In this document: piece by piece, positions 7,767-53,618 of the stretch | How positions within the stretch are numbered: the first letter of the stretch is position 1 | Layout of the letters: the number at the start of each line of letters is the position of its first letter | Assembly: GCA_023380475.1 (NCBI GenBank) | Contig: JAMCRD010000003.1 | Coordinates: 28,397 to 92,396 of the forward strand | Length of the DNA: 64,000 nt | Direction of reading: 5' to 3' | DNA from: Patescibacteria group bacterium | GTDB taxonomy: Bacteria; Patescibacteriota; Minisyncoccia; UBA6257; Colwellbacteraceae | Notes under the pieces: model-generated | Told to the model about the DNA's origin: nothing | Seen by the model: only the letters and a program-made list of their open reading frames with translations | Database searches by the model: none | Translations under genes and position numbers: made by a program

Positions 7767-7786
7767 TATCCCCTATAATAGGCAAG

Positions 7787-9055
7787 ATGAAATTCGTTGT
7801 AAATGGAGGCAAAGAACTGAACGGCGAGATCGAAGTTCGTGGTTCGAAGAACGCCGCGACCCCCATCATAGCCTCGACCCTTTTGACATCAAGACCCTGC
7901 ATAGTAGAAAACATACCGCTCATAAGCGATGTTTTTACCACTCTCCAGATCCTGGAAAGTATGGGTTCGGAAATAAGCTGGCTAGGCGAAAGAAAAGTAA
8001 GGATAATTAATAGAGACATAGACCCTACCAGAGTTGACCAGCGCTTAGTGCGCAAAATAAGATCTTCCATTCTTATTCTTGGGCCGCTTTTGGCCAGATA
8101 CGGGGAGGTTGTTATAGCCACTCCGGGTGGCTGCCAAATAGGCACACGTTCCATCAGTGCTCACCTTGAAGCCATAAAAGATTTAGGTGGGGTTGTCGCC
8201 TATGATCCTAAAGAGGATCTGTATGAAATAACTAAACCAGTTGGGCAATGGGGTAATGGAGTTGTACTTAAGGAGTTTAGTGTGACGGCCACTGAGAACA
8301 TAATGATGCTGGGAGCGTTGTCTGCCCCACTTAAAATAGAGTTATGCGCCGCTGAGCCTCATGTTCAAGAGTTGGGATATTTTATGAATATTCTAGGGGC
8401 TGACTATCGCGGTCTAGGTACTCACGAGATTGTCATAACCCGCGGCATTGAGAATCGTAACCAAGAAATCAGTCACCGTATCGCAAGCGACTATCTTGAG
8501 GCTGGAACTTTCATGGCTCTGGCGGCGATGATTGGCGACAAGGTCAGGATTAAAAACGTCCCTATCGATTACTTGACCGCTGCTATCCAAAAACTAAGAG
8601 AGTTCGGTGTTTTGCTGAGCATAAGCGGCGACAGTATACTAATCACCGGCGACCGAAAGCGTTTGACAAGCACGAACGTGCAAACCTTGCCGTATCCTGG
8701 CTTCCCAACTGATCTTCAAGCGCAATTTGGAGCCATGGCAACTCAATGTCAGGGTGACAGCCTTATTTTTGACACTCTTTACGAGGGAAGATTAAAATAC
8801 ATTGAAGAGCTAGTTAAAATGGGTGCACGGGCTAAAATTCTTGACCCTCACCGTGCGCTAATATCTGGTCCGACCAAGCTGCACGGAGCCGAAATCGAGA
8901 GCCTCGACCTGCGGGCCGGAGCCACATTGGTTATAGCAGCTTTGGCGGCCAGTGGCGTAAGTTCTTTGGGGGGCATTGAGCAGATTGACCGCGGTTACGA
9001 GCATATTGAAGAACGTTTGAAGTTATTAGGTGCGGAGATAGAAAGAAACAATTAA
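7787..9055 (+). CDS. murA: UDP-N-acetylglucosamine 1-carboxyvinyltransferase
   Basis: 422 aa. N-terminus GEIEVRGSKNAATPIIASTLL, and PGGCQIG with the active-site Cys region. Confidence 0.93.
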   Translation: MKFVVNGGKELNGEIEVRGSKNAATPIIASTLLTSRPCIVENIPLISDVFTTLQILESMGSEISWLGERKVRIINRDIDPTRVDQRLVRKIRSSILILGPLLARYGEVVIATPGGCQIGTRSISAHLEAIKDLGGVVAYDPKEDLYEITKPVGQWGNGVVLKEFSVTATENIMMLGALSAPLKIELCAAEPHVQELGYFMNILGADYRGLGTHEIVITRGIENRNQEISHRIASDYLEAGTFMALAAMIGDKVRIKNVPIDYLTAAIQKLREFGVLLSISGDSILITGDRKRLTSTNVQTLPYPGFPTDLQAQFGAMATQCQGDSLIFDTLYEGRLKYIEELVKMGARAKILDPHRALISGPTKLHGAEIESLDLRAGATLVIAALAASGVSSLGGIEQIDRGYEHIEERLKLLGAEIERNN

Positions 9056-9061
9056 ATTTTT

Positions 9062-10069
9062 ATGTTCACGAATAGGATAGGCATAGATTTAGGTACAACT
9101 AATACGGTTGTTTTTGTGCCCGGACGAGGTTTTGTGGTTAATGAGCCGACCATTGTCGCTCTCAGTCTGCCGGACAACAACGTTATGGCCGTCGGCAGAG
9201 AGGCTAAAGAAATGATCGGCAGAACTCCGGGGGATATAGCTGCCTATCGGCCATTAAAGGACGGTGTGGTTGCTGACTACTATATCACCAGAGCTATGCT
9301 TAAGTATTTCATAAACAAGGCCACGGGGCCTTGGAACTTGGTTAAACCGGATGTTGTCATATCGGTACCGGCAGGGATTACGGCTACAGAGCGACGGGCG
9401 GTTATCAATGCTGCCCAGGAAGCAGGAGCCAAAAACGCCTATGTTGTGCGCGAGCCGCTGCTGGCCGCCCTTGGCGCAGGGATAGCCATTAATTCATCTT
9501 CAGGGAATATGATCATTAATATCGGCGGCGGAACTTCTGAAGTCGCCGTTATTTCCTTGGGAGGGATAGTTTGCTGGTCCAGTATAAGAGTGGCTGGCAA
9601 TAAATTTGACGAGGCCGTCATGGGCTACATTAAGAAGAAATATGGTGTAGCTATAGGAGAACAGAGTGCTGAAGCTATAAAGATATCAGCCGGTTCAGCT
9701 ATGCCTCTTAAGACCAAGCTTGAGGTTAACTTCCGTGGCCGAGATTTGGTGAGTGGCCTACCTAAGGACCTGACGATAAATTCCAACGAGATAGCAGAGG
9801 CTTTAAACCCTTATCTGGCCGATATAGCAGCGGCGGTCCAGGGGGTTTTCAACCAAACCCCTCCGGAACTGGTGGCAGACGTCATGGAAAAGGGGATTAT
9901 TTTGTCAGGCGGAACAGCCAACCTGCGCCACATTGACGGATTCTTCGAACGAATCTTTAACGTGCCAACGTACGTCGCTGAGGATTCAATTTTATGTGTA
10001 GCTAAAGGCTCCGGGATAATCATCGATCACCTTGATGTCTATAAAAGAACGCTCCTCAACAAGAGATAG
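9062..10069 (+). CDS. mreB: Rod shape-determining protein MreB (copy 1)
   Basis: Actin-fold motifs IGIDLGTTNT, NEPTIVA and IINIGGGTSEVAVIS. Confidence 0.92.
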   Translation: MFTNRIGIDLGTTNTVVFVPGRGFVVNEPTIVALSLPDNNVMAVGREAKEMIGRTPGDIAAYRPLKDGVVADYYITRAMLKYFINKATGPWNLVKPDVVISVPAGITATERRAVINAAQEAGAKNAYVVREPLLAALGAGIAINSSSGNMIINIGGGTSEVAVISLGGIVCWSSIRVAGNKFDEAVMGYIKKKYGVAIGEQSAEAIKISAGSAMPLKTKLEVNFRGRDLVSGLPKDLTINSNEIAEALNPYLADIAAAVQGVFNQTPPELVADVMEKGIILSGGTANLRHIDGFFERIFNVPTYVAEDSILCVAKGSGIIIDHLDVYKRTLLNKR

Positions 10070-10082
10070 GGCGCCTAAACCT

Positions 10083-10907
10083 ATGGCAGGTTACGACCGG
10101 CTTTGGGGCACTTTTGTTGAAAAGGCTGACAATCACAGTCTTTTTCACGGTTATATCTTCTTTGGAGAACAGGGGGTCGGCAAGTTCACTTTTGCTAATT
10201 GCTTGGCCAACTATCTTGAGTTCGACCGCATGGATAAACAGGACACGCCTCGCAGCGAAACCTTAATGGTTAGCGTTGGCAATGGGAAAGAAAGTATAGG
10301 CATAGATACGATTCGAGACATAAAATATTTTCTATCTGAGCAGCCATCAGCCTCAGCTTATCGAACGGTACTAATCGACGGGGCTGATAATCTTACCGAC
10401 CAAGCTCAGAATGCTCTATTAAAGGTATCAGAAGAACCCCCGGCGCATGGACTATTGATATTGATTACCAATGATCTCGATAATCTCTTGCCCACCCTTC
10501 AATCGCGCTTCCACAAGATTTACTTCCCAAGGCTCTCTAAAAACGAGATAGCTAAGCATTTAGAATCAATACTGAAATTGGATAAAGAAGCGGCTGAGAA
10601 AATAGCTAAGATTTCTTTTGGCAAAATGGGACGCGCTTTACAGTTGGCTGCAGGTGACGAACTAGATGCAAGACAAAAGGCCAGGAAGGCACTCAAAGAT
10701 CGACTTGCGGCTAGGAAATTGCTGGCTGACGCCGTAGACGATCCAGAGCAGCTTAATGCTATTATTAAAGAGTTACTGGCCGAGTTAGCCTTAAACCCTC
10801 AGCAGAATCTCACAACCATTAAAGAGCTATTGCGTAGGAATACGTTGAACAACTCGCTCAACACCAACAAGAGACTACAATTGGAAGCTGCCCTATGGAC
10901 TATATAA
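10083..10907 (+). CDS. holB: DNA polymerase III delta' subunit
   Basis: AAA+ clamp-loader motifs (FFGEQGVGKFTFA, LIDGADNLT, LPTLQSRF). The ATG at 10083 avoids overlap with mreB. Confidence 0.75.
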   Translation: MAGYDRLWGTFVEKADNHSLFHGYIFFGEQGVGKFTFANCLANYLEFDRMDKQDTPRSETLMVSVGNGKESIGIDTIRDIKYFLSEQPSASAYRTVLIDGADNLTDQAQNALLKVSEEPPAHGLLILITNDLDNLLPTLQSRFHKIYFPRLSKNEIAKHLESILKLDKEAAEKIAKISFGKMGRALQLAAGDELDARQKARKALKDRLAARKLLADAVDDPEQLNAIIKELLAELALNPQQNLTTIKELLRRNTLNNSLNTNKRLQLEAALWTI

Positions 10908-12473: not shown

Positions 12474-13687
12474 AACAGAGTGAATTATTTACTAAGACCT
12501 TGCGAGAAGCGCCAAAGGACGAAGATGCCGTGAACGCTCAGTTGCTTATACGAGCCGGCTTTATAGATAAGTTGATGGCTGGTGTGTACACGATGCTGCC
12601 GCTGGGGCTCATGGTGCGCAATAAGATTGAACAGATTGTCCGTGAAGAGATGGCTAAGATAGGAGGCAACGAGATAGTTATGCCGGTACTGCAGCCTATG
12701 GCCAACTGGGAAAAGACCGGTCGTTGGAATAGTCTAGACGTCCTTTTTAAGTTCACAAGCTACTACACTAAAAACGATTACGCTCTTGGACCGACACATG
12801 AAGAAGTGATCTCGCCTTTGTTAAAGAAGTTCATTCTTTCTTACAAAGATCTGCCTAGATACGTTTTCCAGATCCAGAATAAATTCAGGGATGAACCACG
12901 CTCCAAATCCGGTCTACTGCGAGGCAGAGAATTCTTGATGAAAGATCTATATTCTTTTCACGCCAACCAGAAAGATCTGGATAAATATTATGAGTTGGTA
13001 ATCAAAACTTATATGAAGATGTATAAACGCCTTGGATTGGGGGGTAATACATACGTTACCTTTGCTTCAGGTGGAACTTTTTCCAAGTATTCTCATGAGT
13101 TTCAGACGGTAGCTGATGCTGGCGAAGACACTATATATATATGCGATAAATGTAAGATAGCCGTAAATAAAGAGATAATCAAAGAACAAAAGGTATGTCC
13201 CAAGTGTGGTGGAAGCAAGTTAAGGGAAGCCAGATCGATTGAGGTTGGGAATATATTCAAGCTTAGCAACAAGTTTTCGGCACCATTCGGGCTTTCATAT
13301 CGAGATGAGCGTGGGAATATGAACGACGTAGTAATGGGTTGCTATGGTATGGGGATAAGCCGTCTAGTTGGTACTATCGTGGAAGTCTCTCACGATGACC
13401 GGGGAATTATATGGCCGGAGAGCATTGCCCCATTCCGTTTTCATCTTGTCGAGCTTAGGAAAGGAATAGGGCGTGACCTTTATAGGCGTTTGCAAGCCAA
13501 AGGAGATAATGTACTCTATGACGACAGGGAACTTTCAGCGGGGGAGAAGTTTGCTGATGCGGACCTAATCGGCATCCCTTACAGACTGGTGGTCAGCGAG
13601 AAGACCGGTAAGAAGATTGAGGTCAAGAAAAGGGATAGTAAGAACACAAAATTAGTGGGTTATGGCACTATTTCGAAACTTTCATAA
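12470..13687 (+). CDS. proS: Prolyl-tRNA synthetase, short form without INS editing domain
   Basis: N-terminus QSELFTKTLREAPKD..AQLLIRAGF, class II motifs and an anticodon-binding C-terminus. Only 405 aa, with CDKC...CPKCG in the INS position. Confidence 0.88.
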   Translation: MKQSELFTKTLREAPKDEDAVNAQLLIRAGFIDKLMAGVYTMLPLGLMVRNKIEQIVREEMAKIGGNEIVMPVLQPMANWEKTGRWNSLDVLFKFTSYYTKNDYALGPTHEEVISPLLKKFILSYKDLPRYVFQIQNKFRDEPRSKSGLLRGREFLMKDLYSFHANQKDLDKYYELVIKTYMKMYKRLGLGGNTYVTFASGGTFSKYSHEFQTVADAGEDTIYICDKCKIAVNKEIIKEQKVCPKCGGSKLREARSIEVGNIFKLSNKFSAPFGLSYRDERGNMNDVVMGCYGMGISRLVGTIVEVSHDDRGIIWPESIAPFRFHLVELRKGIGRDLYRRLQAKGDNVLYDDRELSAGEKFADADLIGIPYRLVVSEKTGKKIEVKKRDSKNTKLVGYGTISKLS

Positions 13688-14708
13688 GAACGTAGGTATA
13701 GATCTAGGCACAGCTAACTTCCTTATTTATTTGGGTGGGCAAGGCATTGTGGTTAATGAACCGACTTTGGTTGCTTTGAATAATCGTACCGGTCAAATAC
13801 TGGTGATCGGCAATGAAGCCAAAAAAATGCTGGATCGCTCGCCAGCTCATATTAGTTTGATCAAGCCTCTTATCGGTGGCGTAATATCCGATTTTGAGAT
13901 GACGGAAGCCATAATAAAATACTTCCTAAGGAAAGTCGGTGGAGAGGGATTGTTCACTCGCTACAATCTCGCTGCCATATGTGTTCCAACCAACCTTACC
14001 GAGGTGGAACGTAAATCAGTTGAGGATGCAGCTGTATCCGCCGGGATATCCAAAACGCTGCTAGTCGAAGAACCGATAGCTTCAGCTATTGGCGGTCGGT
14101 TGCCCATCGAAGAGCCTACCGCTAATATGATTGTCGATATCGGCGGAGGTACAAGTGAGATATCCATAATCTCGGCTGGCGGAACAGTCATTTCCAAGAG
14201 CCTTAAGGTAGCTGGTCAAAAGCTTAACGAAGATATAGTTCGCTATATAAGAGATGAATTCAAATTGATGGTTGGTGAACCTACCGCTGAAGAACTTAAG
14301 ATAACTATCGGCTCAGCCATACCTCAAGATGAAAAATTGGAGATGACCATCCGTGGCAGGGACATGTCTACTGGTCTGCCGAAAGAGATAACCGTGAAAA
14401 GCGGCCACGTCCGAGTAGCCATGCAAAAATCGCTGAAAACCATTGTCGAAGCTATACGTGAGATAATCGAGGAGGCCCCACCGGAGCTCGTCGGCGATAC
14501 GTTAAAACGGGGTATTTATCTCTCGGGAGGTGGCAGCTTGCTTATGGGGCTGGACCAATATATTGAGAGGGAAACTACGGTCAAGACCAGGTTGGTGGAC
14601 GATCCTCTGACTTGCGTTGTCCGCGGCTTGGGGATAATCGTTGAAGATTTACCCAAGTATGAAACCATACTATCTAATCAGCCGAAAGCTAAAGTGGTGA
14701 ATATATAA
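13662..14708 (+). CDS. mreB: Rod shape-determining protein MreB (copy 2)
   Basis: VGIDLGTANF, NEPTLVA and VDIGGGTSEISIIS. Heads the mreC-mreD-PBP2 run. Confidence 0.92.
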   Translation: MALFRNFHKNVGIDLGTANFLIYLGGQGIVVNEPTLVALNNRTGQILVIGNEAKKMLDRSPAHISLIKPLIGGVISDFEMTEAIIKYFLRKVGGEGLFTRYNLAAICVPTNLTEVERKSVEDAAVSAGISKTLLVEEPIASAIGGRLPIEEPTANMIVDIGGGTSEISIISAGGTVISKSLKVAGQKLNEDIVRYIRDEFKLMVGEPTAEELKITIGSAIPQDEKLEMTIRGRDMSTGLPKEITVKSGHVRVAMQKSLKTIVEAIREIIEEAPPELVGDTLKRGIYLSGGGSLLMGLDQYIERETTVKTRLVDDPLTCVVRGLGIIVEDLPKYETILSNQPKAKVVNI

Positions 14709-14710
14709 AT

Positions 14711-15385
14711 ATGAGGCGGGCCTTTGCCTTAGTGGTCATTGCTCTGGCGGTAATCGTGTTCATAGTACACAGCCAGTTCGCAACCGAAGGCAAGTCGTTG
14801 GGAACGGCAGCTATAGGGGATATAGCTGCCGTCGTAAGTTCGTCTAACTCTAGCGTGAGTAATGAGTTGACAGCATTGCAACAAGAGAACGCCGCCTTAA
14901 GGGTGCAACTGTTTAACCAAAGCCTGTACAGCCCGACAAATACAGTTGAAGTTTATTCAGACTATCCCTTGAACAGCGAGCAGGAAATAGCTATTGCCGC
15001 TGGCAGTCGGGAAGGGGTTAAAGTCGGGGACATTGTCACGTGGGGGAGCAGCGTTCTGATAGGTAAAGTTACGGCGGTGATGGATGACGCCAGCATTGTC
15101 TCCACGATTTTTGACCCATCTTGGCAAATGGCTGTTAGAATAGGTAACTCGCAAGCAGACGGATTGCTTCAAGGTGGCGTATCGCCAACCGTCACTCTCA
15201 TACCCCAGAATGGGCAGATCAATGTCGGTGATATGGTCATAACAGCCACAACGGGTTTCCCATACGGTTTAGAGGTCGGGGTCGTAAAGACAATCGAAAA
15301 CACTCCGAATAGCGTTTTCCGTCAAGCTACCATTCAGACCGAAATAGACATACCGCATCTGACCAATGTTACGGTTCATTATTAA
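14711..15385 (+). CDS. mreC: Rod shape-determining protein MreC
   Basis: N-terminal TM, a coiled-coil (ELTALQQENAALRVQL) and a beta-rich domain with GDMVITATTGFPYGLEVGVV. Follows mreB. Confidence 0.8.
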   Translation: MRRAFALVVIALAVIVFIVHSQFATEGKSLGTAAIGDIAAVVSSSNSSVSNELTALQQENAALRVQLFNQSLYSPTNTVEVYSDYPLNSEQEIAIAAGSREGVKVGDIVTWGSSVLIGKVTAVMDDASIVSTIFDPSWQMAVRIGNSQADGLLQGGVSPTVTLIPQNGQINVGDMVITATTGFPYGLEVGVVKTIENTPNSVFRQATIQTEIDIPHLTNVTVHY

Positions 15386-15806
15386 TTTGATTCTAATAAT
15401 AGTTGCTGGGTTACTGCAGTCCGCAACATGGTTCACGCTTGCTGGCGTCAAGTCTGATCTGGTCATGGTCCTAGTGCTGGTCATGCTTATGATTGATCAC
15501 GACTGGCTGGATCGTTTGGCTTTGATTCTTTTAGGAGAATTAATGCTCCAGTTTGGTCCTCGTCCCGACATATACAGCATCATCTTTTTAGGTTTAATGG
15601 TAATAAGCGCGCTGGTCATCGACTTGGTTAGTCTGCAACCCTACTTAACTTTGGGATCCGTAGTGGTCGCAGCAACCATCTTGATGAACGTCTACGGTCA
15701 CATACCGTGGAGCATCATCCTGACAGAATCGGCCTACAACCTCGTGCTAGCCATTTTGTTCTACACCGTGTTAAAACGACCTTATGGCCAAAAGATATCT
15801 AAATAA
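15366..15806 (+). CDS. mreD: MreD-like membrane protein
   Basis: 146 aa polytopic membrane protein between mreC and PBP2. Assigned mainly by position. Confidence 0.55.
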   Translation: MLRFIINLILIIVAGLLQSATWFTLAGVKSDLVMVLVLVMLMIDHDWLDRLALILLGELMLQFGPRPDIYSIIFLGLMVISALVIDLVSLQPYLTLGSVVVAATILMNVYGHIPWSIILTESAYNLVLAILFYTVLKRPYGQKISK

Positions 15807-17640
15807 AAATATAGATCTGGACGAGACGGTGGCGGATAGCGCCTTTCAAGGGCTAAACCCGAAAGAACAACCCTTGCACTCGCGTGTCTTCTGGCTATTG
15901 CTTCTACTCGCCCTTATGTTTGCCTTAGCTACCTCGATACGCCTCATCACCATGGGGACTTTGAACTATACCCATTACAGCCTCTTGGCTGAAGAAAATG
16001 CCAACGAGATTACACCCATTGTTGCTCCCCGCGGTGTGATAACCGACCGCTTTGGTACTTCTTTAGCTGAGAACCAGCCGGTTTTCAGCGCTTATTTGAA
16101 TGTAGCCGACATGATTAAGAACAGCCAGAGAGATGCTGTGTTCAACGCTGCTCAAAATATCTTGGGCGTAGATAGCAGTAAACTGTCTTCCGAGGTAGGC
16201 GGGGTCAATTTTGAACAAGGGGGACAAATTCTTCTGTTGCGCGATCTCAGCCGCGAACAGCTAATAGCCTTGCAAAGTTTGAATATCTCCTCAATTAAAA
16301 TCGAGAATGACTATGAACGTCTTTATCCGAATGATTCCCAAGCCTTCTCAACGGTTATTGGCTATGTCGGTCAAACCAGCAGTAGCAATCGGCTCCAAGG
16401 ATTAGCCGGATTAGAAAGCTACTATAACGCCACTCTTCAAGGAACAGATGGTGAAACCGTCACGCCTAGGAATGCCCAAGGTCAGATTGAAGGTCAACCG
16501 ACAACCATAGCGCCTCAAGCTGGGCAGAACCTTCAGACGACCATCGATGGCCCATTTCAAGACTACTTTTATAACCGCATGTTGTCTGGCTTACAGCAGC
16601 TTAACCGCACCAATGGCATCGGTCTAGCTATAAATCCACAAAACGGGCAGGTGTTGGCCATGATAAGTTTCCCAACCTATGATCCTAATAACGTCGCCGC
16701 GGCGCTTAACAACCCCAACCAGCCGTTGTTTAACCGAGCCGTCAGCGGCCAGTACAGTCCCGGTTCGACCATAAAACCGCTGGATGCCGTAGCTGTCTTA
16801 AAAAGCGGCAACATAAGCCCAACCCAACAGATCATGTCGGTAGGCTATATGTACGTGCCCAATCCATATAATCCCTCTAGCCCCAGCAAGTTCATGGATT
16901 GGCGGCCTCAAGGCCTTGTTGACCTCTATTCAGCTATTGCTCGCTCTTGCGATGTTTACTTCTACATCACGGTCGGCGGTTCGCCGGCGCGGACGACGCC
17001 CTTGCTCAACGACCCTAGTGACTATGGCGTCACGGGGATCGGCCCCGGAAGCTTATATGAATGGTGGCAAAAGTTCGGCTTAGGCAAGCCAACTGGCATA
17101 GATATGCCTGGAGAAACGGCCGGCTTTCTGCCTAACCCCACTACCTACGAACAGACCACTGGCCGCCCGTGGTTGTTGGGTGACACCTATAACGTCGCCA
17201 TTGGTCAAGGTGACCTGCAGGTCACGCCCTTACAGCTAATGGACTACATTAGTGCCATTGCCAACAATGGCGTAGCTTATCAGCCGAGCTTATTACTGAA
17301 CGCTACTCCAACCAAGATCTTAGATCTGTCGAGTCTTTCGCCCCAGATCAAACAGGTTCAGCAAGGCATGATCGAAACCGTAGCCAAATCTTATGGGACA
17401 GCTTATCTCCTGCATACCCTGCCATTTTCGGTCGCCGCCAAAACAGGCAGTGCTCAAACTAACAACAACAGCCGAGTCAATGCTATTTTTGTTGGCTATG
17501 CTCCGGCCACCAACCCTCAGATTGAGGTCGTGATTCTGATAGAAAATGGCTATGAAAGTATTTTGAACGCTGTCCCGATAGCTAAGGATGTACTGTCGTG
17601 GTACTATGAAAATCGAATAGCCAAAAACAGCAACAGTTAA
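15784..17640 (+). CDS. mrdA: Penicillin-binding protein 2 (transpeptidase)
   Basis: N-terminal TM, SxxK (GSTIKP) and KTG (AKTGSAQ). Sits in the mreBCD context. Confidence 0.88.
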   Translation: MAKRYLNKNIDLDETVADSAFQGLNPKEQPLHSRVFWLLLLLALMFALATSIRLITMGTLNYTHYSLLAEENANEITPIVAPRGVITDRFGTSLAENQPVFSAYLNVADMIKNSQRDAVFNAAQNILGVDSSKLSSEVGGVNFEQGGQILLLRDLSREQLIALQSLNISSIKIENDYERLYPNDSQAFSTVIGYVGQTSSSNRLQGLAGLESYYNATLQGTDGETVTPRNAQGQIEGQPTTIAPQAGQNLQTTIDGPFQDYFYNRMLSGLQQLNRTNGIGLAINPQNGQVLAMISFPTYDPNNVAAALNNPNQPLFNRAVSGQYSPGSTIKPLDAVAVLKSGNISPTQQIMSVGYMYVPNPYNPSSPSKFMDWRPQGLVDLYSAIARSCDVYFYITVGGSPARTTPLLNDPSDYGVTGIGPGSLYEWWQKFGLGKPTGIDMPGETAGFLPNPTTYEQTTGRPWLLGDTYNVAIGQGDLQVTPLQLMDYISAIANNGVAYQPSLLLNATPTKILDLSSLSPQIKQVQQGMIETVAKSYGTAYLLHTLPFSVAAKTGSAQTNNNSRVNAIFVGYAPATNPQIEVVILIENGYESILNAVPIAKDVLSWYYENRIAKNSNS

Positions 17641-18645: not shown

Positions 18646-19254
18646 ATGGGTTTTTCGCTTCTTTCGGAAATATCGGCCTTTATTCTGGCGGTAGTATCCA
18701 GCCTCGGCTACTGGGGAGTATTCATCCTCATGGTTTTTGAAAGTCTGGACATACCTATCCCTTCCGAAGTTGTGCTGCCTTTCGCTGGCTTTCTGGTTTA
18801 CCTAGGCAAGTTTGATATTGTAGCCGTCATTCTAATCGCGGCCACGGGTAATTTGGTCGGCTCATTGATCAACTACTGGCTGGCTTATAGGTATCGAGAC
18901 GGTGCGGCGGCGCTGATTGAAAAGTGGCACCTGGTTGGCGTTAAGGAAATAAACTGGGCTTACCGTTGGTTTGAGACAAGGGGATTGATTGTAGTGTTCC
19001 TGGGACGTTTATTGCCCATAGTAAGAACCTTCATTTCCTTCCCAGCCGGATTCTTTAAGGTCAGCCTGAAGCACTTCGCCTTACTTACTTTCATTGGCTC
19101 GTTTATATGGGGAGCAGCCTTAACATATATAGGCTATGTAGCTGGCTATAACTGGATGACGCTCGAACCATACTTCCGGCAATTCGATTATCTTATATGG
19201 GGCATAATTGCCATTGCTATAATCTGGGAGATAGCGCGGAGGATTCGCAAGTGA
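18646..19254 (+). CDS. dedA: DedA/SNARE-associated family membrane protein
   Basis: 202 aa with ES.D.PIPSEVVLPFAG and R.LP.VRTFIS.PAG motifs. Confidence 0.85.
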   Translation: MGFSLLSEISAFILAVVSSLGYWGVFILMVFESLDIPIPSEVVLPFAGFLVYLGKFDIVAVILIAATGNLVGSLINYWLAYRYRDGAAALIEKWHLVGVKEINWAYRWFETRGLIVVFLGRLLPIVRTFISFPAGFFKVSLKHFALLTFIGSFIWGAALTYIGYVAGYNWMTLEPYFRQFDYLIWGIIAIAIIWEIARRIRK

Positions 19255-19290
19255 GGACTCCGCAATAAAATAGTGCTAAAATTTCTAAAG

Positions 19291-19998
19291 ATGATTAAGT
19301 TACTTGTCGCTAACTGGAAAGCCAACCCCGAGACGTTAACCGAAGCAGTTAGGCTAGCTAAAAATATAGACTACACTGGTGTAGTCATTGCACCTCCCTT
19401 CCCATTTCTAGATGGTGTTAGAAAAGTTATACACAAAGCAAAATTGGCTGCTCAGAATGTGTTTTGGTCTGATGGGCCATACACTGGAGAAGTTTCAGCA
19501 AACCAACTTAAGAAGTTGGGCGTAAGATACGCAATAATCGGCCACTCTGAACGCAGAAGAAATCTGAATGAGATCGATGCGATCATAAATAAGAAAGTTA
19601 CAGCCGCCTTAAACAATAGTATCAAGCCGATATTATGTGTAGGCGAAGGGCCGGAACTCCATAAAAGCGGGGATCACTCGAAAGTCCTAAGGTTTATAGA
19701 CAATCAACTTAAACTTGACTTGCATGGCATACGCAATCCCAGAGGGGTAATAATTGCTTACGAACCAATATGGGCGATTGGTACGGGGAATAGCGACTCG
19801 ACTGAACATGTATCTAAAGTAGTAGCGCTTATTAAAGAAAGATTGGGCAGCGTATCTATTTTATACGGTGGGTCTGTGAATCCAAATAACGCTGACAAAT
19901 TTATGTCTATTGCCGGCATATCAGGCGCGCTGATAGGCGGGGCAAGTTTAAAGTCGAGTGAATTCAAGAAGATTATTTCGATAAGCAAACGCTATTAA
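19291..19998 (+). CDS. tpiA: Triosephosphate isomerase
   Basis: Motifs LVANWKAN, IIGHSERR and YEPIWAIGTG. ATG 19291 lies 8 nt after TGcTAAAAT. The track start at GTG 19273 overlaps that -10 box. Confidence 0.9.
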   Translation: MIKLLVANWKANPETLTEAVRLAKNIDYTGVVIAPPFPFLDGVRKVIHKAKLAAQNVFWSDGPYTGEVSANQLKKLGVRYAIIGHSERRRNLNEIDAIINKKVTAALNNSIKPILCVGEGPELHKSGDHSKVLRFIDNQLKLDLHGIRNPRGVIIAYEPIWAIGTGNSDSTEHVSKVVALIKERLGSVSILYGGSVNPNNADKFMSIAGISGALIGGASLKSSEFKKIISISKRY

Positions 19999-20023
19999 AC
20001 AACAATTGTTGTATAATTAAGCT

Positions 20024-20767
20024 ATGCAAAACAATTTATACCAAGGCGCAAAATTAGTTCTAGTCATAGTAATAATAATCGCAGCCTGTGCGGCAGTGTA
20101 TGGATTGGTAAGTTGGGGAAATTCACTGACTCCAGCTAAAACCATGACCGTCACGGCGGACGCTCAAACCAATGTCTCACCAGATCTAGCAACAGTGTCT
20201 TTCTCTGAAGTGACGATAGGCAGTGACCCTACCAAAATTGAGGCTGCGAATGCAACTCAAATCAACAGCGCTATAAATTTTGTAAAACAGGAGGGTATAA
20301 GCTCTGAAGATATCGCTACCACTAACTATAACTTGTCGCCGAATTATGACTACACTCGCAAAGACGGTAAGGTATCAATAATAAGTTACACGATAACTGA
20401 GACAGAAACGCTTAAAATCAAAGACTTCACTAAGATCGCACCGATATTAGCAGGACTGGTAAACCTCGGCGTAAACCAAATAGGTCAGGTTACATTCAGC
20501 GTCGAAGATCCAGATAGCCAACTAGCCAGCGCGAGAAAAGAAGCCTTCGCCAAAGCTCAGTTAAAGGCTCAACAGATGGCGGTGGATAATGGCGTCAAAT
20601 TAGGGGGGATAATAAGTGTATCAGAGAATACTAATAACATAGGCCCATTACCAATCTATAATACTATGTCGGCCGCCGGCGTCAGTGGTAGAGCCGTTAC
20701 TCCGACCATAGAACCAGGAACCCAGCAACTAACGGACTACGTAAGCATTACTTATGCCATACAATAA
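20024..20767 (+). CDS. SIMPL/DUF541-family exported protein
   Basis: N-terminal TM or signal segment. Repeated alpha/beta halves typical of SIMPL 26-kDa periplasmic proteins (NYNLSPNYDY..., IEPGTQQL). Confidence 0.65.
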   Translation: MQNNLYQGAKLVLVIVIIIAACAAVYGLVSWGNSLTPAKTMTVTADAQTNVSPDLATVSFSEVTIGSDPTKIEAANATQINSAINFVKQEGISSEDIATTNYNLSPNYDYTRKDGKVSIISYTITETETLKIKDFTKIAPILAGLVNLGVNQIGQVTFSVEDPDSQLASARKEAFAKAQLKAQQMAVDNGVKLGGIISVSENTNNIGPLPIYNTMSAAGVSGRAVTPTIEPGTQQLTDYVSITYAIQ

Positions 20768-22196: not shown

Positions 22197-22301
22197 TGGT
22201 TGCTTATTTCTTAGTTCTGTGTTATATTCTGAATTAGAGTGAGTGGTGAACAGCCCTCGGCGATGATATCGATCGAGGATTGTCCCTTAGCACTGTTTGG
22301 T

Positions 22302-22329
22302 CAAAACCCCTTCTTCGGAGGGGGTTTTG
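22302..22329 (+). terminator. Stem-loop terminator after glycine-rich gene 1
   Basis: CAAAACCCC-ttcttcggag-GGGGTTTTG, followed by T-rich sequence and the pgk -10 box. Confidence 0.55.
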
Positions 22330-22346
22330 GTTGTTATAATAGAAGC

Positions 22347-24855: not shown

Positions 24856-24891
24856 TATAATCAATAAGTAGAAATGCTAACCATTGATTGT

Positions 24892-27921: not shown

Positions 27922-27941
27922 ATAAAGGGAATTTTCTTGTA

Positions 27942-27970
27942 TTGACAGTGCCTGTCAAATATGGTATAAC
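27942..27970 (+). promoter_or_regulatory. Sigma70-type promoter with extended -10 and a palindrome over the -35
   Basis: TTGACA (27942-27947), 17 nt spacer, TGgTATAAC (27962-27970). TTGACAG-tgc-CTGTCAA is a palindrome at 27942-27958. Confidence 0.6.
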
Positions 27971-36913: not shown

Positions 36914-37000
36914 AAAAGCTACTTAGTTTAGCCGGTGGTAAGTGATATTGCAATTGATTGCTATCTACATGGTTCCAGCTGGTACTTTATGTTATAGTTA

Positions 37001-37273
37001 ATGCAAATGACGGCACTGACTATAGCTGAGACTGTGTTCTACATAGTGGTTTCATTAGCCATAATAGCTTTGGGCGTGTTCTGTTGCGTCGTGACTTACG
37101 AGCTGGTCAAGATAACCAAGAATCTGAGAATCATCTCCGAAAACTTGTCCTCAATGTCAAAAGACACCGAAGAAAAAGTAAAGGAGATGTTAGACAGGCT
37201 ATCTGTTTCGCCAATACTGTCCTTTTTCATGAAAAGGGGCAAAGCATCATCCAAAGGTCGCAGCAGCAAGTAA
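37001..37273 (+). CDS. Small membrane protein, unknown function
   Basis: 90 aa with one N-terminal TM helix and a charged C-terminus. Overlaps an alternative-frame track ORF. Confidence 0.45.
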   Translation: MQMTALTIAETVFYIVVSLAIIALGVFCCVVTYELVKITKNLRIISENLSSMSKDTEEKVKEMLDRLSVSPILSFFMKRGKASSKGRSSK

Positions 37274-39430: not shown

Positions 39431-39458
39431 TTGATACCAGCAGAATTATATGTATACT
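39431..39458 (+). promoter_or_regulatory. Putative csp promoter
   Basis: TTGATA (39431-39436), 16 nt spacer, TATACT (39453-39458). Leader of about 60 nt before the csp ATG. Confidence 0.5.
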
Positions 39459-39521
39459 CATCTGAGTTGAGTTAAAGGAGGAGACTAGGTCGAGTTTTCC
39501 AAAGAAGAAAAAGATAAAATT

Positions 39522-39719
39522 ATGAAAGGAACCATCAAAAAGCTCACGGACAGAGGATTCGGTTTCATCGCTCGCGAAGGCGAGACGAAGGATCTGTTCT
39601 TCCACTCTAAAGAGCTAAAGGGTGTCACGTTCGACGAATTAAAAGTCGGCGACGCTGTCACATTTGATGTGGTCGACACCGATAAAGGTCCGGCCGCTAC
39701 GAACGTAAGCCGCGCTTAG
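39522..39719 (+). CDS. csp: Cold-shock protein (CspA family)
   Basis: 65 aa with the RNP1-like motif RGFGFI and an FFHSKEL motif. Confidence 0.93.
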   Translation: MKGTIKKLTDRGFGFIAREGETKDLFFHSKELKGVTFDELKVGDAVTFDVVDTDKGPAATNVSRA

Positions 39720-41812: not shown

Positions 41813-42922
41813 CTACTTTTTTAGATTCTCTATTATAGCGATCTCCAAGGGTACAACAGCAAATGGGCTGTAACGCATTTCGCTATACGCTCGGATAAGT
41901 GATTTTATAATCGCGATCAACTTCACATCGTCCTTGATCATAGCTCCATGTTTCTTAATCAAAGATATTTCCTCACCAGTCAACTCGCGCTTGAAGACGT
42001 CCTCAAGATCTGGATCGAACCTGAGCGAGAGAACTCTTCTAAAATAGTGAATCAGGTCGCGAGTAAGCTGGACCAAGTTAAAACCTGCTTCATTGATATC
42101 GGCCAGATAACTCAAGGCGGCTTGCAAATCGCCTGCCAGTATGTAGCCCGCCAGTCCCGAGGTGCGGGTGAGACCTACCTTACCCAACAGTCTCTCGACA
42201 TTCTCCAGCGTCGTCCCGCTCCCCATGGACACAACTTGTTCCAACAGAGATTCGGCGTCCCGGAAACTGCCGTCGGCCGCCGTGGCGATAAGTTCCAGAG
42301 CAGCGCTGTCGATATCAAATTTTTCTTCAAGAACTATCTTGTTCAGTTTTTGCAATATTTCCTGAGTTGGCACGCGGCGGAAATGGAAACGCTGGGTACG
42401 CGAGGTTATGGTTGGCGGGAGTTTATCCACCTCAGTCGTAGCCAAAATGAAGATGGCGTGGGCGGGCGGCTCTTCCAAAGTTTTCAAAAGAGCATTCGCT
42501 GCCTCCTTAGTAAGCTGGTGGGCTTCGTCGATTATAAACACCTTATAGCGATTGGAAGTAGGGGAAAGTTTTATGCCTTCCTTCAAGCTTCTTATCTCAT
42601 CGATTCCTCGGTTAGAGGCGGCATCGATCTCGATCACGTCCAAGGCATGCCCTTCGTCTATCTCTCGGCAAGCGCGGCATTTATTACACGGTTCGCCGGT
42701 CGCCCTGAACTTCGGGTCGCTGGCCCGGGTCTCACAGTTAGCTATCTTGGCAATCAATCTTGCCGCCGTCGTCTTGCCGGTACCCCTCGGGCCATAAAAA
42801 AGGTAAGCATGACTCAACTTGTCCTCGCGGGCTGCATTCTTTATGACCTCAACTACCAGGTTCTGTCCAATCAATTCGGACAGGAGTTTGGGCCGGTATT
42901 TCCTGTATATCGCCAGAGCCAT
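41813..42922 (-). CDS. dnaX: DNA polymerase III gamma/tau subunit, short (clamp-loader core only)
   Basis: MALAIYRKYRPKLLSELIGQ, Walker A GPRGTGKTT, zinc module CNKCRACREI, Walker B IIDEAH, and SRTQRF. The ATG at 42922 lies 7 nt after a TATAAT. Confidence 0.9.
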   Translation of the reverse strand: MALAIYRKYRPKLLSELIGQNLVVEVIKNAAREDKLSHAYLFYGPRGTGKTTAARLIAKIANCETRASDPKFRATGEPCNKCRACREIDEGHALDVIEIDAASNRGIDEIRSLKEGIKLSPTSNRYKVFIIDEAHQLTKEAANALLKTLEEPPAHAIFILATTEVDKLPPTITSRTQRFHFRRVPTQEILQKLNKIVLEEKFDIDSAALELIATAADGSFRDAESLLEQVVSMGSGTTLENVERLLGKVGLTRTSGLAGYILAGDLQAALSYLADINEAGFNLVQLTRDLIHYFRRVLSLRFDPDLEDVFKRELTGEEISLIKKHGAMIKDDVKLIAIIKSLIRAYSEMRYSPFAVVPLEIAIIENLKK

Positions 42923-43020
42923 CGCTTTAATTATATGTGGAAACGACATAAAATGAAGCGTCAAAACATAAACCCTGAGTTACCCCGATAAACAGAAGGG
43001 GAATTGCCCGCCCGCACATC

Positions 43021-46234: not shown

Positions 46235-46292
46235 GGATTCCGGAAACAATAAACGTCTCTCGGGCTAATAGAGAGGTGCTATAATTCAGAGA

Positions 46293-47777
46293 ATGAGCCT
46301 GCTTATAAAAGGCGTCCAAGTGGTGGACGGTGAAGGGAAGCCACCATATTTGGCTGATGTTCTCGTCCAAAAGAATGTGATTGGCGCCATTGGCAACTTT
46401 AAAAACAAACAGACCGATGAAGTCATAGACGGCCTAGGCAACTATCTCATGCCTGGTTTCATAGATGTCGACACCGATTCCGACCACTACCTGGATATAT
46501 TCACTCATCCATCCCAGACCGATTTTACATCTCAAGGAGTAACTACCATTATTGGCGGCCACTGCGGTTCATCGCTGGCACCGCTGCTCTACGGCACGCT
46601 CGAGGGATTGGACAAATGGGCTGACCCATCGACTATCAACGTGAATTGGCACACCATGGCTGAATTCCTATCATCTTTGGACAAACTCAAGCTAGGGGTT
46701 AATTTTGGATCCCTGGTCGGATACTCAACCGTACGTCGAGCTTTAACCGGAGATAACGAACGCGCCCTGACTCACAGCGAGTTGGCCATCTTTAAAGAAG
46801 TTGTCAGTCGGGCTTTACGGGAAGGAGCCTTCGGTCTGTCGACCGGCCTAGGTTACGTCCACGGCCGCACGGCCAAACCGGAGGAGATAAAAGAGCTGGT
46901 CAGCATCCTTAAAAACTTTGACGCTGTGTATGCCACCCATCTGAGAAATCAAACCGATCGTCTTCTGGCCTCAGTTAGAGAAACAATTGACGTTGCTTCA
47001 GCCACCGGCGTCCAGACTCTGATAAGCCACCTCCGCCCCCTGAAAGGGTATGAAGATCAATATATCAAGGCTCTCGAATTGATCGAGCACAGTGCCGCCC
47101 AAGCCAGCATTTTCTTCGATGTCTATCCCCACGACACGAGCATCTACTCGCTGTACTCGCTCCTACCACGCGAAGCCCAGAAGAGGAGCGCCGAAGCAAC
47201 GTTGGAGCACATAGCCAAACCCAAGAACCTCAAGACGATAGAAAAAAATCTGGCCGAACTTGATCCGGATAATATGCAGATTGCCAGCGCCCCTAAATAT
47301 GATCATTTAGTAGGCAAAACTATCCGCAACGTCGCCGAAGACAAAGGCATCACCCCTGCCAAAGCTCTACTGGAACTGATGAGGCTTACCTCACTAAAAG
47401 CCACTGTCTTCTATAAAGACGTTAACCTGGACTTACTAACTCAAGCCATGGTCAGCGACCGTTGTTTCATAGCCTCCAACGGCCACTCGCCGCTCCCTGG
47501 AAAATTTATGAAGCACGAGCGTTCGACCAATACCTTCCCTAAATTCCTGGAGATGGCAAGCAAGCTCAACCTGATGCCGATAGAAAAAGCTGTAAAAAAG
47601 ATAACCTCCTTGCCGGCCAAATATTTCGATCTCAACGACAGGGGAGCGATCAAAGAAGGCAAAATCGCCGACCTGGCCCTGGTCGGCAAGGATGATCTCA
47701 AAGTGAAAGAAGTCGTCGTTGGCGGGGAACGCCGAGGTGCAATCCTTCGCCACCAAAATCACAAAGGCAAGAAGTGA
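46293..47777 (+). CDS. Amidohydrolase-fold protein of the N-acyl-D-amino-acid deacylase family, with divergent metal-site residues
   Basis: Family-like layout (GGHCGSS, ATHLRN, ISHLRP). The usual GFID.H.H is GFIDVDTDSD, and the late catalytic Asp region reads IASNGH. Confidence 0.7.
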   Translation: MSLLIKGVQVVDGEGKPPYLADVLVQKNVIGAIGNFKNKQTDEVIDGLGNYLMPGFIDVDTDSDHYLDIFTHPSQTDFTSQGVTTIIGGHCGSSLAPLLYGTLEGLDKWADPSTINVNWHTMAEFLSSLDKLKLGVNFGSLVGYSTVRRALTGDNERALTHSELAIFKEVVSRALREGAFGLSTGLGYVHGRTAKPEEIKELVSILKNFDAVYATHLRNQTDRLLASVRETIDVASATGVQTLISHLRPLKGYEDQYIKALELIEHSAAQASIFFDVYPHDTSIYSLYSLLPREAQKRSAEATLEHIAKPKNLKTIEKNLAELDPDNMQIASAPKYDHLVGKTIRNVAEDKGITPAKALLELMRLTSLKATVFYKDVNLDLLTQAMVSDRCFIASNGHSPLPGKFMKHERSTNTFPKFLEMASKLNLMPIEKAVKKITSLPAKYFDLNDRGAIKEGKIADLALVGKDDLKVKEVVVGGERRGAILRHQNHKGKK

Positions 47778-48877: not shown

Positions 48878-50024
48878 GTTGAGAGTATTGATGACTGGCG
48901 GCGGGACAGGCGGGCATATTTATCCGCTGGTCTCGGTTGCGGCTGAGCTTCAAGTATTGGCCGCCGAGAAGAAAATCAGCTTGGATATCCATTACCTCGG
49001 TGCCTTCGGACCGTTCCAAGAACTGCTCGAGCTAAACGGCTTGAAAGTAGGCCGCATCGCCGATAGCAGACTGAGACGTTATTTTTCGATGCGCAATTTC
49101 ATAGACGTTCCGAAATTTGGCTACAGCTTATTGCAAGCTGCCTTCAAGATGTTTTGGTTCATGCCAGATGTAGTTTTCTCGAAAGGCGGACCCGGAGCGC
49201 TGGCAGTTGTCTTGATTGCTCGCTTCTACCGGATACCGGTAATAATCCATGAGTCCGATTCTGTGCCAGGACTTACTAACCTTATCTCCGGTAAGTATGC
49301 CAATGTAATCGCGACTTCTTTCGAGTCCGCTTCGGTCTATTTCCCAAGCGATAAAATAGTGCTGACCGGCAACCCCATCCGCCGCTATATGCTGGAAGAT
49401 TTTAAAAAGGAATCGGTTAGCCGTAACAAGGGATTCCTCGGCTTCGATCCTTCTTTGCCTCTCATAACCGTGATGGGTGGTTCGCAAGGAGCTGCGGCTC
49501 TAAACGACTTCGTCATCGGACATCTGCGGGAGATATTGAATATAACGCAGGTTTTGCACCAAACAGGAACGGCCAACTACGACGATGTTGTGTCTAAACT
49601 TGAATCAGCCTCGGCGGGAATCGATAACGATCTGCTCAAACGCTACCGTCCCGTCGCTTATCTCAAAAATGATCTACGAGCTGCCTTTATCGCTTCTGAT
49701 TTGGTAGTCAGCCGCGCCAGCGGCGGCGGCATATTTGAACTGGCCGCTTTTGGAAAACCATCTATCCTCATACCACTGCCGTCGGACGTGGCCGCCGGAG
49801 ACCACCAGACCAAGAACGCTGCCGATTACTGCCAGACCGGTGCGGCTGTGATGGTGAAGCAGGACGAAATGCCCAGCCGTCTACTCAAAGAGGTTCAAAG
49901 ACTGCTAGCATCGCCGGCGGAATTAAATCAAATGAGTCAGGCAGCCACACGTTTTTCTAAGCCTGAGGCCGCTTTAAATATAGCCGAAACCGTCCTAAAA
50001 TTAGGAGGTTATGGTGAGAGTTAG
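48870..50024 (+). CDS. murG: UDP-GlcNAc:lipid I N-acetylglucosaminyltransferase MurG
   Basis: N-terminus TGGGTGGHIYP, IHESDSVPG and C-terminal SRASGGGIFELAA. Confidence 0.9.
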   Translation: MSKLRVLMTGGGTGGHIYPLVSVAAELQVLAAEKKISLDIHYLGAFGPFQELLELNGLKVGRIADSRLRRYFSMRNFIDVPKFGYSLLQAAFKMFWFMPDVVFSKGGPGALAVVLIARFYRIPVIIHESDSVPGLTNLISGKYANVIATSFESASVYFPSDKIVLTGNPIRRYMLEDFKKESVSRNKGFLGFDPSLPLITVMGGSQGAAALNDFVIGHLREILNITQVLHQTGTANYDDVVSKLESASAGIDNDLLKRYRPVAYLKNDLRAAFIASDLVVSRASGGGIFELAAFGKPSILIPLPSDVAAGDHQTKNAADYCQTGAAVMVKQDEMPSRLLKEVQRLLASPAELNQMSQAATRFSKPEAALNIAETVLKLGGYGES

Positions 50025-52682: not shown

Positions 52683-52719
52683 TTTCCCATTTAAGACTAT
52701 ATATGCTATACTCTGTCAA

Positions 52720-52872
52720 ATGGGTTTGCAGACGCTGATAAACAATGTGACATCCACCGCTGCTACCATAATTGGTCCGGCCAAAACTATTCTCGTGTCT
52801 GTAACTCAGATCATCGTACAGATATTGCAATACATTGTTTACCTTCTTAATTTACTGATATCTAAGCTATAG
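52720..52872 (+). CDS. 50-aa hydrophobic micro-ORF (tentative)
   Basis: MGLQTLINNVTSTAATIIGPAKTILVSVTQIIVQILQYIVYLLNLLISKL. TATACT ends 7 nt before the ATG, and a terminator follows at 52892-52920. Confidence 0.3.
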   Translation: MGLQTLINNVTSTAATIIGPAKTILVSVTQIIVQILQYIVYLLNLLISKL

Positions 52873-52891
52873 CAAGATACCTACAAATAAC

Positions 52892-52920
52892 AAAACAGTC
52901 CTCCAAGAGGGGACTGTTTT
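52892..52920 (+). terminator. Intrinsic terminator
   Basis: AAAACAGTCC-tccaagagg-GGACTGTTTT. Confidence 0.75.
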
Positions 52921-52940
52921 TAGTATGGTATGATAAACCA

Positions 52941-53618
52941 ATGTTCACTCCTATAAGGAAAGTAAACGGGATATCTTATGAAAGAATAGCTGTTAAGACA
53001 CATCTGATAAGATTCGGGGAAAATCTTATAGGACTCCTCAAAAAATATGTTTCACCTGTTTTGAAGCCGGGGGATTGGTTAGCACTTTCTGAAAAAGTTG
53101 TGTCGGTAACGCAAAACAATATCCGCCATATTTCGACTGTAAAAGTTAGTTGGCTAGCCAAATTGATTGTGAGGGGAGTGAAGAAATACCCCGATGACAA
53201 AGGATGGGACAATCCTGAGAAAATGCAGGTAGCAATAGAAATGGCTGGTTATCCAAGAGCTATCCTAGCAATGTTGCTCGGCGGCATCGGGAAGGTGTTC
53301 CATATCCGTGGCATCTTCTGGACTGTCTTAGGGCACCGCGCTGGAGAACTTGATGGCTTCAATCCAGTGGTTCTTCAACCGTATCGAGAAAACGTCGCTC
53401 TACCGCCATCGCATCCAAGAGAAATGTGCGAAAGGATTGAACGAGAATTGGGCGCACCGGCAGTGATCATAGACGGCAATAACATCAATGTTAAAGTCAT
53501 CGCGATGAGCCACGGCATGCCAGTAAACACTAAGTTCGCTAGATTGGTGCTCTTGGACAATCCCATGGGGCAGGAAGATGAACTAACCCCCTTCATAATT
53601 GTGCGTAAGAAAGATTAA
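52941..53618 (+). CDS. CofE-like (F420-0:gamma-glutamyl ligase family) protein
   Basis: Family-like pattern: KPGDWLALSEKVVSVTQ, IIDGNN and a C-terminal NPMGQEDELTPFIIVRK (compare ..MGEGG.GIP.VVVRG). Confidence 0.5.
   Translation: MFTPIRKVNGISYERIAVKTHLIRFGENLIGLLKKYVSPVLKPGDWLALSEKVVSVTQNNIRHISTVKVSWLAKLIVRGVKKYPDDKGWDNPEKMQVAIEMAGYPRAILAMLLGGIGKVFHIRGIFWTVLGHRAGELDGFNPVVLQPYRENVALPPSHPREMCERIERELGAPAVIIDGNNINVKVIAMSHGMPVNTKFARLVLLDNPMGQEDELTPFIIVRKKD

Follow-up and report, generated by a model that had tools for sequence, protein, structure and literature searches.

In genomes that GeneMarkS-2 places in group C, a Pribnow box stands 6-8 nt away from where the first gene begins in 25-50% of operons, with Actinobacteria and Deinococcus-Thermus making up most of the group (PMC6028130). 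Such a leaderless architecture is familiar from other bacteria; a description of it for the lineage considered here was not found in our full-text literature searches, which returned no paper on leaderless transcription or Shine-Dalgarno (SD) usage in Saccharibacteria or in the Candidate Phyla Radiation (CPR). A study of CPR ribosomes (PMC9297842) reports that uL30 and bL9 have been lost, that bS1 and uL15 are short, and that the anti-SD is missing only in some Parcubacteria, and the word 'leaderless' is absent from it. Here we analyze 64,000 nt of contig JAMCRD010000003.1 from a Patescibacteria group bacterium (the window; GC = 47%), in which a −10 box ends 6-8 nt before the ATG of 13 of 66 genes. 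We consider it likely that these boxes give rise to leaderless or near-leaderless mRNAs, a reading of the sequence proposed in an earlier note on this DNA and supported here by positional enrichment, replication in 822 kb of related loci, promoter anatomy, the spacing at rnpB and conservation among orthologs.

As in Mycobacterium tuberculosis, Deinococcus deserti and other group C genomes, the box lies 6-8 nt upstream of first-in-operon starts and the SD is absent; set beside the 25-50% of operons in that group, the window has a box at 37% of its first-in-operon genes and the clade at 15-21%. The boxes found here come close to the TATAAT consensus and frequently carry a TGn extension, the host is a CPR lineage with a mid-GC, reduced genome, and the transcription start sites (TSSs) are predicted, whereas those of group C were mapped experimentally. 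Internal genes of group C are modelled with an SD-type ribosome-binding site (RBS), whereas internal genes here carry no SD signal in either the window or the clade, a departure from typical group C genomes and not from leaderless genes as such. The extended −10 promoters of E. coli and Gram-positives share the TGn element, found here in 7/13 window genes, at rnpB and in 35% of clade candidates, as well as the weak −35; coupling of the start codon to +1 is not a feature of that class, whereas here it is predicted. Bacteroidetes-type genomes (group B) are similar in their very low SD usage with a canonical anti-SD retained in 16S rRNA, as seen in one relative of the window (L076). In group B, however, a single A-rich motif precedes all genes including internal ones, whereas a −10 box precedes 11/30 first and 2/36 internal genes here, and some leadered genes do retain an SD (tuf and rpsJ of cultivated Saccharibacteria, and an SD peak at first genes of the clade).

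The gene table for the window (n = 66) combines public gene starts from assembly GCA_023476555.1, in which the murA, amidohydrolase and PGK proteins are identical to those of the window, as they are in two Logan assemblies, with our own motif-blind calls where a public call was absent. A gene was scored as having a box if a hexamer with at least 5/6 matches to TATAAT (A2 and T6 fixed) ended 6-8 nt before its start. By this measure 13/66 genes have a box compared with 16/1779 non-start ATGs (0.9%; binomial p = 3e-14), and a control run on E. coli yielded 0/63 annotated genes. The enrichment peak is confined to gaps of 6-8 nt, and start-agnostic tests show the same peak. Exact TATAAT occurs at gaps of 6-7 nt in six genes, and across offsets of 0-45 nt there is just one other occurrence, at a gap of 12. 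Genes heading an operon account for most of the boxes (11/30, ~37%, versus 2/36 internal genes; Fisher p = 0.002).

Intergenic DNA in the window is A/T-rich and the window contains 1327 loose TANNNT-like matches, as would favor a chance co-occurrence of hexamer and start codon. This explanation is refuted, and we leave it next to no probability. None of 2000 dinucleotide-preserving shuffles of the upstream 60 nt reached 13 (mean 1.3, maximum 7), and the pattern TATAAT-N6/7-ATG is found six times versus 1.23 expected, all six at gene starts, a count that 0/100 shuffles attained. Control offsets in the related loci give 4-5 times fewer matches, and conservation among orthologs is strong. The earlier note had listed nine genes together with rnpB, and all ten coordinate sets proved exact, with hexamer-to-ATG gaps of 6-8 nt; all nine genes hold, and four further cases had been missed (adk, a PEGA/beta-propeller gene, a PD-(D/E)XK nuclease gene and an 88-aa open reading frame (ORF)). 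Its observation that the box is often TGn-extended also stands, with pgk (TGtTATAAT) and a 50-aa ORF (TGcTATACT) to be added to the extended cases. The comparison with a shuffled background that it proposed gave strong enrichment, at gaps of 6-8 nt only and concentrated on first-in-operon genes, and its term 'widespread' is fair: under the strict box definition, ~37% of genes heading an operon qualify in the window and 15-21% do so clade-wide.

The distance from box to ATG depends on the start codons being placed correctly. We take the gene starts as right because the public calls are consistent with the profile alignments and with conserved N-termini. Starts match the public calls for murA, tpiA (235 aa), the SIMPL gene (247 aa), pgk (353 aa), dnaX (369 aa), the amidohydrolase (494 aa), the 50-aa ORF, the cofE-like gene (225 aa) and adk (217 aa), and all 13 box genes start with ATG. 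Alternatively, the true starts might lie downstream, making the annotated N-termini 5′ untranslated region (UTR). Recurrent upstream motifs can attract Prodigal-type gene callers, PGK is ~12 residues short of its profile, and the profile matches of the cofE-like and SIMPL proteins begin only at residues 18-42. Against such misannotation, NCBIfam profiles begin at residue 1-4 of murA, tpiA, dnaX, the amidohydrolase and adk; the N-terminal residues are conserved across orthologs while the upstream DNA is not, as for the M[T/I]YLLR N-terminus of PGK, present in all six orthologs; the ATG is the earliest possible start of the ORF for six genes; and the start-agnostic tests peak alike. We therefore judge misannotation very improbable. 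Two upstream PGK starts, 22239 and 22263, were considered and rejected because the extended ORF would run across a terminator hairpin and the short N-terminus is common to the orthologs.

To ask for the same arrangement in relatives, we used MraY to scan metagenomes and recovered 80 loci (822 kb; MraY identity 53-80%); a further comparison was made with L004, a relative with 65-78% protein identity to the window. Irrespective of gene calls, for 51 of the 878 TATAAT boxes in the 80 loci an ATG at a gap of 6-8 nt opens an ORF of 100 aa or more, versus 7.8 expected (Poisson p = 9e-25); these ATGs number 22, 17 and 12 at gaps of 6, 7 and 8 on a background of ~2.6 per gap. At least one box case occurs in 40/69 loci. 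First-in-operon genes have a box more often than internal ones (74/436 versus 22/286; p = 3e-4), and 17-21% of first-in-operon ORFs clade-wide carry one, or 15% net of control offsets, which are rough lower bounds.

Individual boxes are retained between relatives. In L004, spacer and flanks have diverged while the boxes of tpiA, SIMPL, pgk and PD-(D/E)XK persist with their spacing: tpiA has TGCTAAAAT at a gap of 8 in both the window and L004 (GATATACT, also at gap 8, in L005 and L006), SIMPL has TATAAT at a gap of 6 in both, and PD-(D/E)XK has TATCAT at a gap of 7 in both. For pgk, TATAAT stands at a gap of 6 in the window, 8 in L004 and 6 in L008. Upstream of pgk in L005 (~7300-7356) and L006 (~9950-10000) we also observed tandem 7-8-nt units (ACATACT..., GATACTA/AATACTA), arrays of repeated −10-like boxes that end just before the ATG. 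The 50-aa ORF has an ortholog in L013 preceded by TGaTACAAT at a gap of 7.

A box of at least 5/6 matches is found at a gap of 6-8 nt in 10/21 dnaX orthologs, with the N-terminus MALAIY conserved, and in 17/28 amidohydrolase orthologs down to ~30% protein identity. Control genes rarely have one (scpA, 2/34; mraY, 2/75; ftsW, 1/26; murG, 3/21; holB, 1/8; total 9/164, compared with 27/49 for dnaX plus amidohydrolase, p = 1e-13). The gltX gene, internal and SD-led in the window, has TGCTAAAAT 7-8 nt before its ATG and after a terminator in L056 and L074, and in three dnaX orthologs the box lies 11 nt upstream with GGAAG in between, suggesting that leaderless architecture tracks operon position, with a gain at gltX and the converse at dnaX.

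Besides their position, we examined the composition of the candidate promoters. Aligned on the box, 74 clade candidates show TG at −15/−14 in 35% of cases (5.9% expected) and TTG (54/54/43%) exactly 17 bp upstream of the box, the −35 position; neither the TGn extension nor the −35 TTG was used in selecting candidates. TG is found one base before the hexamer in 7/13 window box genes and at rnpB, and the −35 elements of the window, taken one by one, are weak. These features support the boxes being essentially −10-driven, sigma-70-type candidate promoters, often TGn-extended. The promoters that drive reporters in Saccharibacteria are of similar composition (TTTACA-17-TATAAT for tuf; TTGATA-17-TATAAT with TG for rpsJ; PMC10633639, Table S4). 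We considered these tuf and rpsJ cassettes as leaderless reporters and rejected them; they are leadered with an SD and validate the promoter type only.

A gene without a start codon offers a calibration of the distance from box to TSS. The rnpB RNA of the window (plus strand; RF00010 match 28421-28825, E = 1.3e-27, 88.9 bits, under the Rfam cut-off of 100) is preceded by an extended −10, TGaTATAAT (28404-28412; element 28404-28825), and its P1 helix is opened by G28420, which pairs with the 3′ end. The box ends 7 nt before G28420, and in L004 TGtTATTAT ends 7 nt before the same G, so the use of this spacing as a calibrator, suggested in the earlier note, applies in two genomes. A permissive Rfam scan for further non-coding RNA calibrators gave just rnpB and one tRNA, and no clear box was found upstream of tRNA-Gln. 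Both rnpB sequences fall under the Rfam gathering threshold of 100 (88.9 bits in the window; 83.9 bits in L004, 17658-18066); they contain large insertions and some unmatched helices and are consequently missed by default annotation.

The rnpB box also bears on whether the hexamer might be a translation signal on leadered mRNAs, a non-SD RBS or standby site of the Bacteroidetes type, instead of a promoter. The motif does stand at the position of an RBS, the SD is absent, and the upstream regions are A/T-rich and G-poor. A general RBS would be expected at internal genes, yet just 2/36 have the box; its sequence is the sigma-70 −10 consensus with TGn and a −35 TTG at 17 bp; rnpB, a non-coding gene, has the same element at an equal distance in two genomes; terminators lie directly upstream of boxes; and at the 20-bp gap between murA and the PEGA gene an upstream promoter would fall inside the opposite gene. 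We regard this explanation as largely refuted and highly improbable.

Strong hairpins, most with T-runs, end 1-13 nt ahead of the box at tpiA, pgk, rnpB and the cofE-like gene, as does a weaker one at the amidohydrolase. All five of these units are on the plus strand. A hairpin at 19236-19263 (ΔG −14.6) ends the unit of a VTT-domain gene 13 nt before the tpiA box (extended −10 TGcTAAAAT 19274-19282, gap 8, ATG 19291; element 19274-19293; start from profile and public call). The strong terminator hairpin at 22301-22330 (ΔG −19.9, with T-run) ends 4 nt before the pgk box (extended −10 TGtTATAAT 22332-22340, gap 6, ATG 22347; element 22332-22349; start from public call and orthologs). A terminator-like hairpin with T-run at 28357-28388 lies upstream of the rnpB promoter, and a terminator hairpin at 52892-52920 (ΔG −16.0, with T-run) ends 8 nt before the box of the cofE-like gene of the F420_ligase family (extended −10 TGgTATGAT 52926-52934, gap 6, ATG 52941; element 52926-52943; public call). 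At the amidohydrolase, the weaker hairpin (46254-46278, ΔG −7.6) ends 1 nt before the box (extended −10 TGcTATAAT 46277-46285, gap 7, ATG 46293; element 46277-46295; profile and public call). Clade-wide, enrichment of hairpins upstream of boxes is not significant (27% versus 20%, p = 0.23).

A second group of box genes faces divergent neighbors. On the minus strand, dnaX (41813-42922) has TATAAT at 42935-42930 (gap 7, ATG 42922; element 42920-42935; profile and public call); its 369 aa comprise the ATPase, lid and domain III and lack the C-terminal tau-specific region of most bacteria. On the plus strand, the 88-aa ORF has an extended −10, TGtTATAGT 36990-36998 (gap 8, ATG 37007; element 36990-37009), and the public call takes ATG 37007, not the in-frame ATG 37001. 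The remaining two, murA (plus strand; TATAAT 7774-7779, gap 7, ATG 7787; element 7774-7789; exact match, start from profile) and the PEGA/beta-propeller gene (minus strand; −10 TATTAT 7780-7775, gap 8, ATG 7766; element 7764-7780; first possible start of the ORF), share an intergenic gap of 20 bp with a predicted symmetric bidirectional −10 inside. It had been stated that one hexamer in this gap reads TATAAT on one strand and TATTAT on the other; the two sequences are indeed on opposite strands, but one is shifted by 1 nt against the other (7774-7779 on the plus strand, 7775-7780 on the minus strand) and the two hexamers do not coincide. For murA, A7775 and T7779 would act as −11A/−7T, and for PEGA as −7T/−11A, and the predicted canonical +1 positions (7786 for murA, 7768 for PEGA) are 18 bp apart.

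This arrangement is like the symmetric bidirectional promoters described by Warman et al. 2021 (in PMC10268837) in its reciprocal −11A/−7T pairing and 18-bp spacing between +1 positions, which here are predicted. In E. coli and Salmonella one arm is often antisense or non-coding, whereas here both transcripts would be leaderless mRNAs and the gap has shrunk to 20 bp. A single symmetric −10 would thus serve two divergent leaderless genes. In the related loci, where a raw scan of divergent gaps was swamped by antisense ORFs in coding regions and the scan was restricted to genes, 9/69 divergent pairs have A/T-rich start-to-start gaps of 10-29 bp, a small sample with uncertain starts; such short-gap pairs occur in L013, L028, L033, L039, L041, L053, L056, L074 and L086.

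Four box genes have an upstream neighbor that ends 10-25 nt before them, and no terminator stands in between. The SIMPL gene (plus strand; TATAAT 20012-20017, gap 6, ATG 20024; element 20012-20026; public call) follows tpiA by 25 nt and is likely also read through from it. A zinc-ribbon membrane gene (plus strand; TATAAT 32215-32220, gap 7, ATG 32228; element 32215-32230; first possible start of the ORF) follows typA by 23 nt. The box of adk (plus strand; −10 TAAAAT 4996-5001, gap 7, ATG 5009; element 4996-5011; public call of 217 aa, profile from residue 4), merely 10 nt after the secY stop, is probably an internal promoter. The fourth is the PD-(D/E)XK nuclease gene (minus strand; TATCAT 29649-29644, gap 7, ATG 29636; element 29634-29649), found by the box scan and kept in L004. 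The thirteenth box belongs to the 50-aa hydrophobic ORF (plus strand; extended −10 TGcTATACT 52704-52712, gap 7, ATG 52720; element 52704-52722; public call).

At the SIMPL, zinc-ribbon, adk and PD-(D/E)XK genes, read-through transcripts probably coexist with leaderless ones. More generally, the boxes could be real but minor internal promoters, with most protein made from longer read-through mRNAs that are translated independently of the SD, as internal genes are. The position of these four genes close behind a neighbor is in keeping with such mixed expression, and internal genes are evidently translated SD-free anyway. However, hairpins, most with T-runs, precede pgk, tpiA, the cofE-like gene, the amidohydrolase and rnpB; murA, PEGA, dnaX and the 88-aa ORF face divergent genes, which makes upstream read-through impossible; and the conserved exact spacing implies selection on the box-to-ATG distance itself. 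As an account of the boxes as a whole, mixed expression is therefore unlikely, although it is less remote than the translation-signal explanation.

Several considerations weigh against leaderless expression from these boxes. The TSSs and the mode of translation are predicted from the position, enrichment, promoter-like anatomy and conservation of the box. The four genes that lack an upstream terminator may be expressed mainly by read-through, and transcripts from boxes at gaps of 7-8 nt may carry 1-2 extra 5′ nucleotides and not start exactly at the A. A two-hexamer −35/−10 scan of the window was not enriched over shuffles, leaving the −35 with statistical support only. The first 30 nt from the ATG of box genes are not less structured than those of other genes (folding of −1.9 versus −1.8 versus −1.7 kcal/mol). 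The clade-wide percentages are rough, owing to crude calling of genes and operons in the metagenomic loci.

Under the leaderless reading, which we prefer, a hexamer at −12 to −7 would place +1 on the A of the ATG for a 6-nt gap, and at gaps of 7-8 nt transcription would start on the A or leave a leader of 1-2 nt. RNA polymerase would thus start at the ATG or 1-2 nt before it, with no room for an RBS. Leaderless mRNAs of other bacteria are bound at their 5′-terminal AUG, and the mechanism prefers ATG. By analogy, translation here may proceed from the 5′-terminal AUG by direct ribosome binding (the 70S/IF2/fMet-tRNA route). The design would serve genes heading a unit, often directly after the terminator hairpin of the preceding unit.

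SD sequences are rare throughout the window, including the ribosomal protein genes, as had been noted and as we confirmed by calibration against E. coli. GGAG, GAGG and AGGA at spacers of 5-14 nt are found in none of the window genes, and AGGAGG in gltX only. Anti-SD pairing of −4.4 kcal/mol or stronger at −20 to −1 occurs in 29% of window genes, and the value for a control region lying 40 nt further upstream is 53%; in E. coli the same pipeline, including homologous ribosomal protein operons, gives 92% versus 32% at the control region. Loss of the anti-SD as the cause was rejected for the clade: the 16S 3′ end in L076 reads GGATCACCTCCTTTCT, which is canonical. An SD peak at spacers of 5-9 nt is seen at some first genes of the wider clade but not at internal genes, and tuf and rpsJ of cultivated Saccharibacteria have leaders of ~70-100 nt with a good SD (PMC10633639).

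Operon-internal genes in the window (e.g., rplX 644, rpsH 1606, mreC 14711 and ftsW 47777), eight ribosomal protein genes among them, are SD-less. Their upstream regions are A/T-rich and G-poor, in most cases the start overlaps the preceding stop or lies no more than ~25 nt from it, and their anti-SD pairing is below that of the control region. The genome thus appears to combine first genes of two kinds, leaderless and leadered (some of the latter SD-led), with internal genes free of an SD. In gltX (region 49995-50016), the AGGAGG, the one strong SD of the window, is separated by 2 nt from ATG 50011 and by 5 nt from a downstream in-frame GTG (50014), and the true start may be this GTG.

Two plus-strand genes offer a leadered contrast. 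In typA/bipA (element 30349-30395), −10 TAATAT (30349-30354) is followed by the stem-loop GGGGCCCGAGAGGGCC (30360-30375), a U-run and ATG 30393. The stem-loop, GGGGCCCGAGA(T)GGGCC, is conserved at the predicted 5′ end in L004 (~19575-19619), where the −10 reads TACTAT; the U-run and an SD-less stretch of ~17 nt come after it. It has no Rfam match and could be a 5′ stabilizer or an attenuator. The csp gene has TTGATA-16-TATACT (39431-39458), a leader of ~57 nt and ATG 39522 (element 39431-39524). Within the csp leader (39459-39521), AAAGGAGGAG stands ~35 nt before the ATG, too far to be the csp SD, and no alternative start follows it.

We also made three observations elsewhere in the window. 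A 95-aa ORF (3456-3743) between rpsE and secY, at the place expected for uL15, overlaps secY by 17 nt and has no Pfam match; it may be a very short uL15, a protein that PMC9297842 describes as truncated at its C-terminus in CPR. From 54227 to 64000, genes have no Pfam family in the public calls where these cover the region (to ~57.8 kb), intergenic gaps reach ~800 nt, no gene has a leaderless box, and GC is unchanged (47.8% versus 47.0%); this segment may be mobile or of phage origin, with expression organized in another way. Locus L012 (a public assembly of the same organism) has no gene listed at 12510-16722, between a Cauli_VI-domain gene and an rve-family integrase at the contig end, and its counterpart in the window (24856-29000) contains a 1015-aa ORF (24874-27921) followed by rnpB; the window assembly and L012 may differ in this region.

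More tentatively, Saccharibacteria, and possibly other CPR with reduced ribosomes, could translate largely independently of the SD, a wider proposal that we hold as plausible and short of probable. The SD would be kept for a few highly expressed leadered genes (tuf, rpsJ), a fifth to a third of units would be leaderless, and internal cistrons, with SD below background, would depend on termination-reinitiation or 70S-type initiation. If true, leaderless and coupled initiation would be the default in a major bacterial radiation despite a canonical anti-SD. For CPR metagenome-assembled genomes, start prediction needs a leaderless-aware model, and SD scoring is uninformative here. Expression cassettes for Saccharibacteria could be compact, as TGnTATAAT, 6-7 nt and an ATG right after a terminator should suffice. 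Leaderless expression from these boxes would add a deeply branching, genome-reduced lineage to the heavy users of leaderless mRNAs. The design would remove 5′ UTRs, with terminator, promoter and ATG within ~30 nt and one 20-bp gap serving two genes, and together with the SD-free internal genes it raises the testable question of how the pared-down CPR ribosome chooses its start codons.

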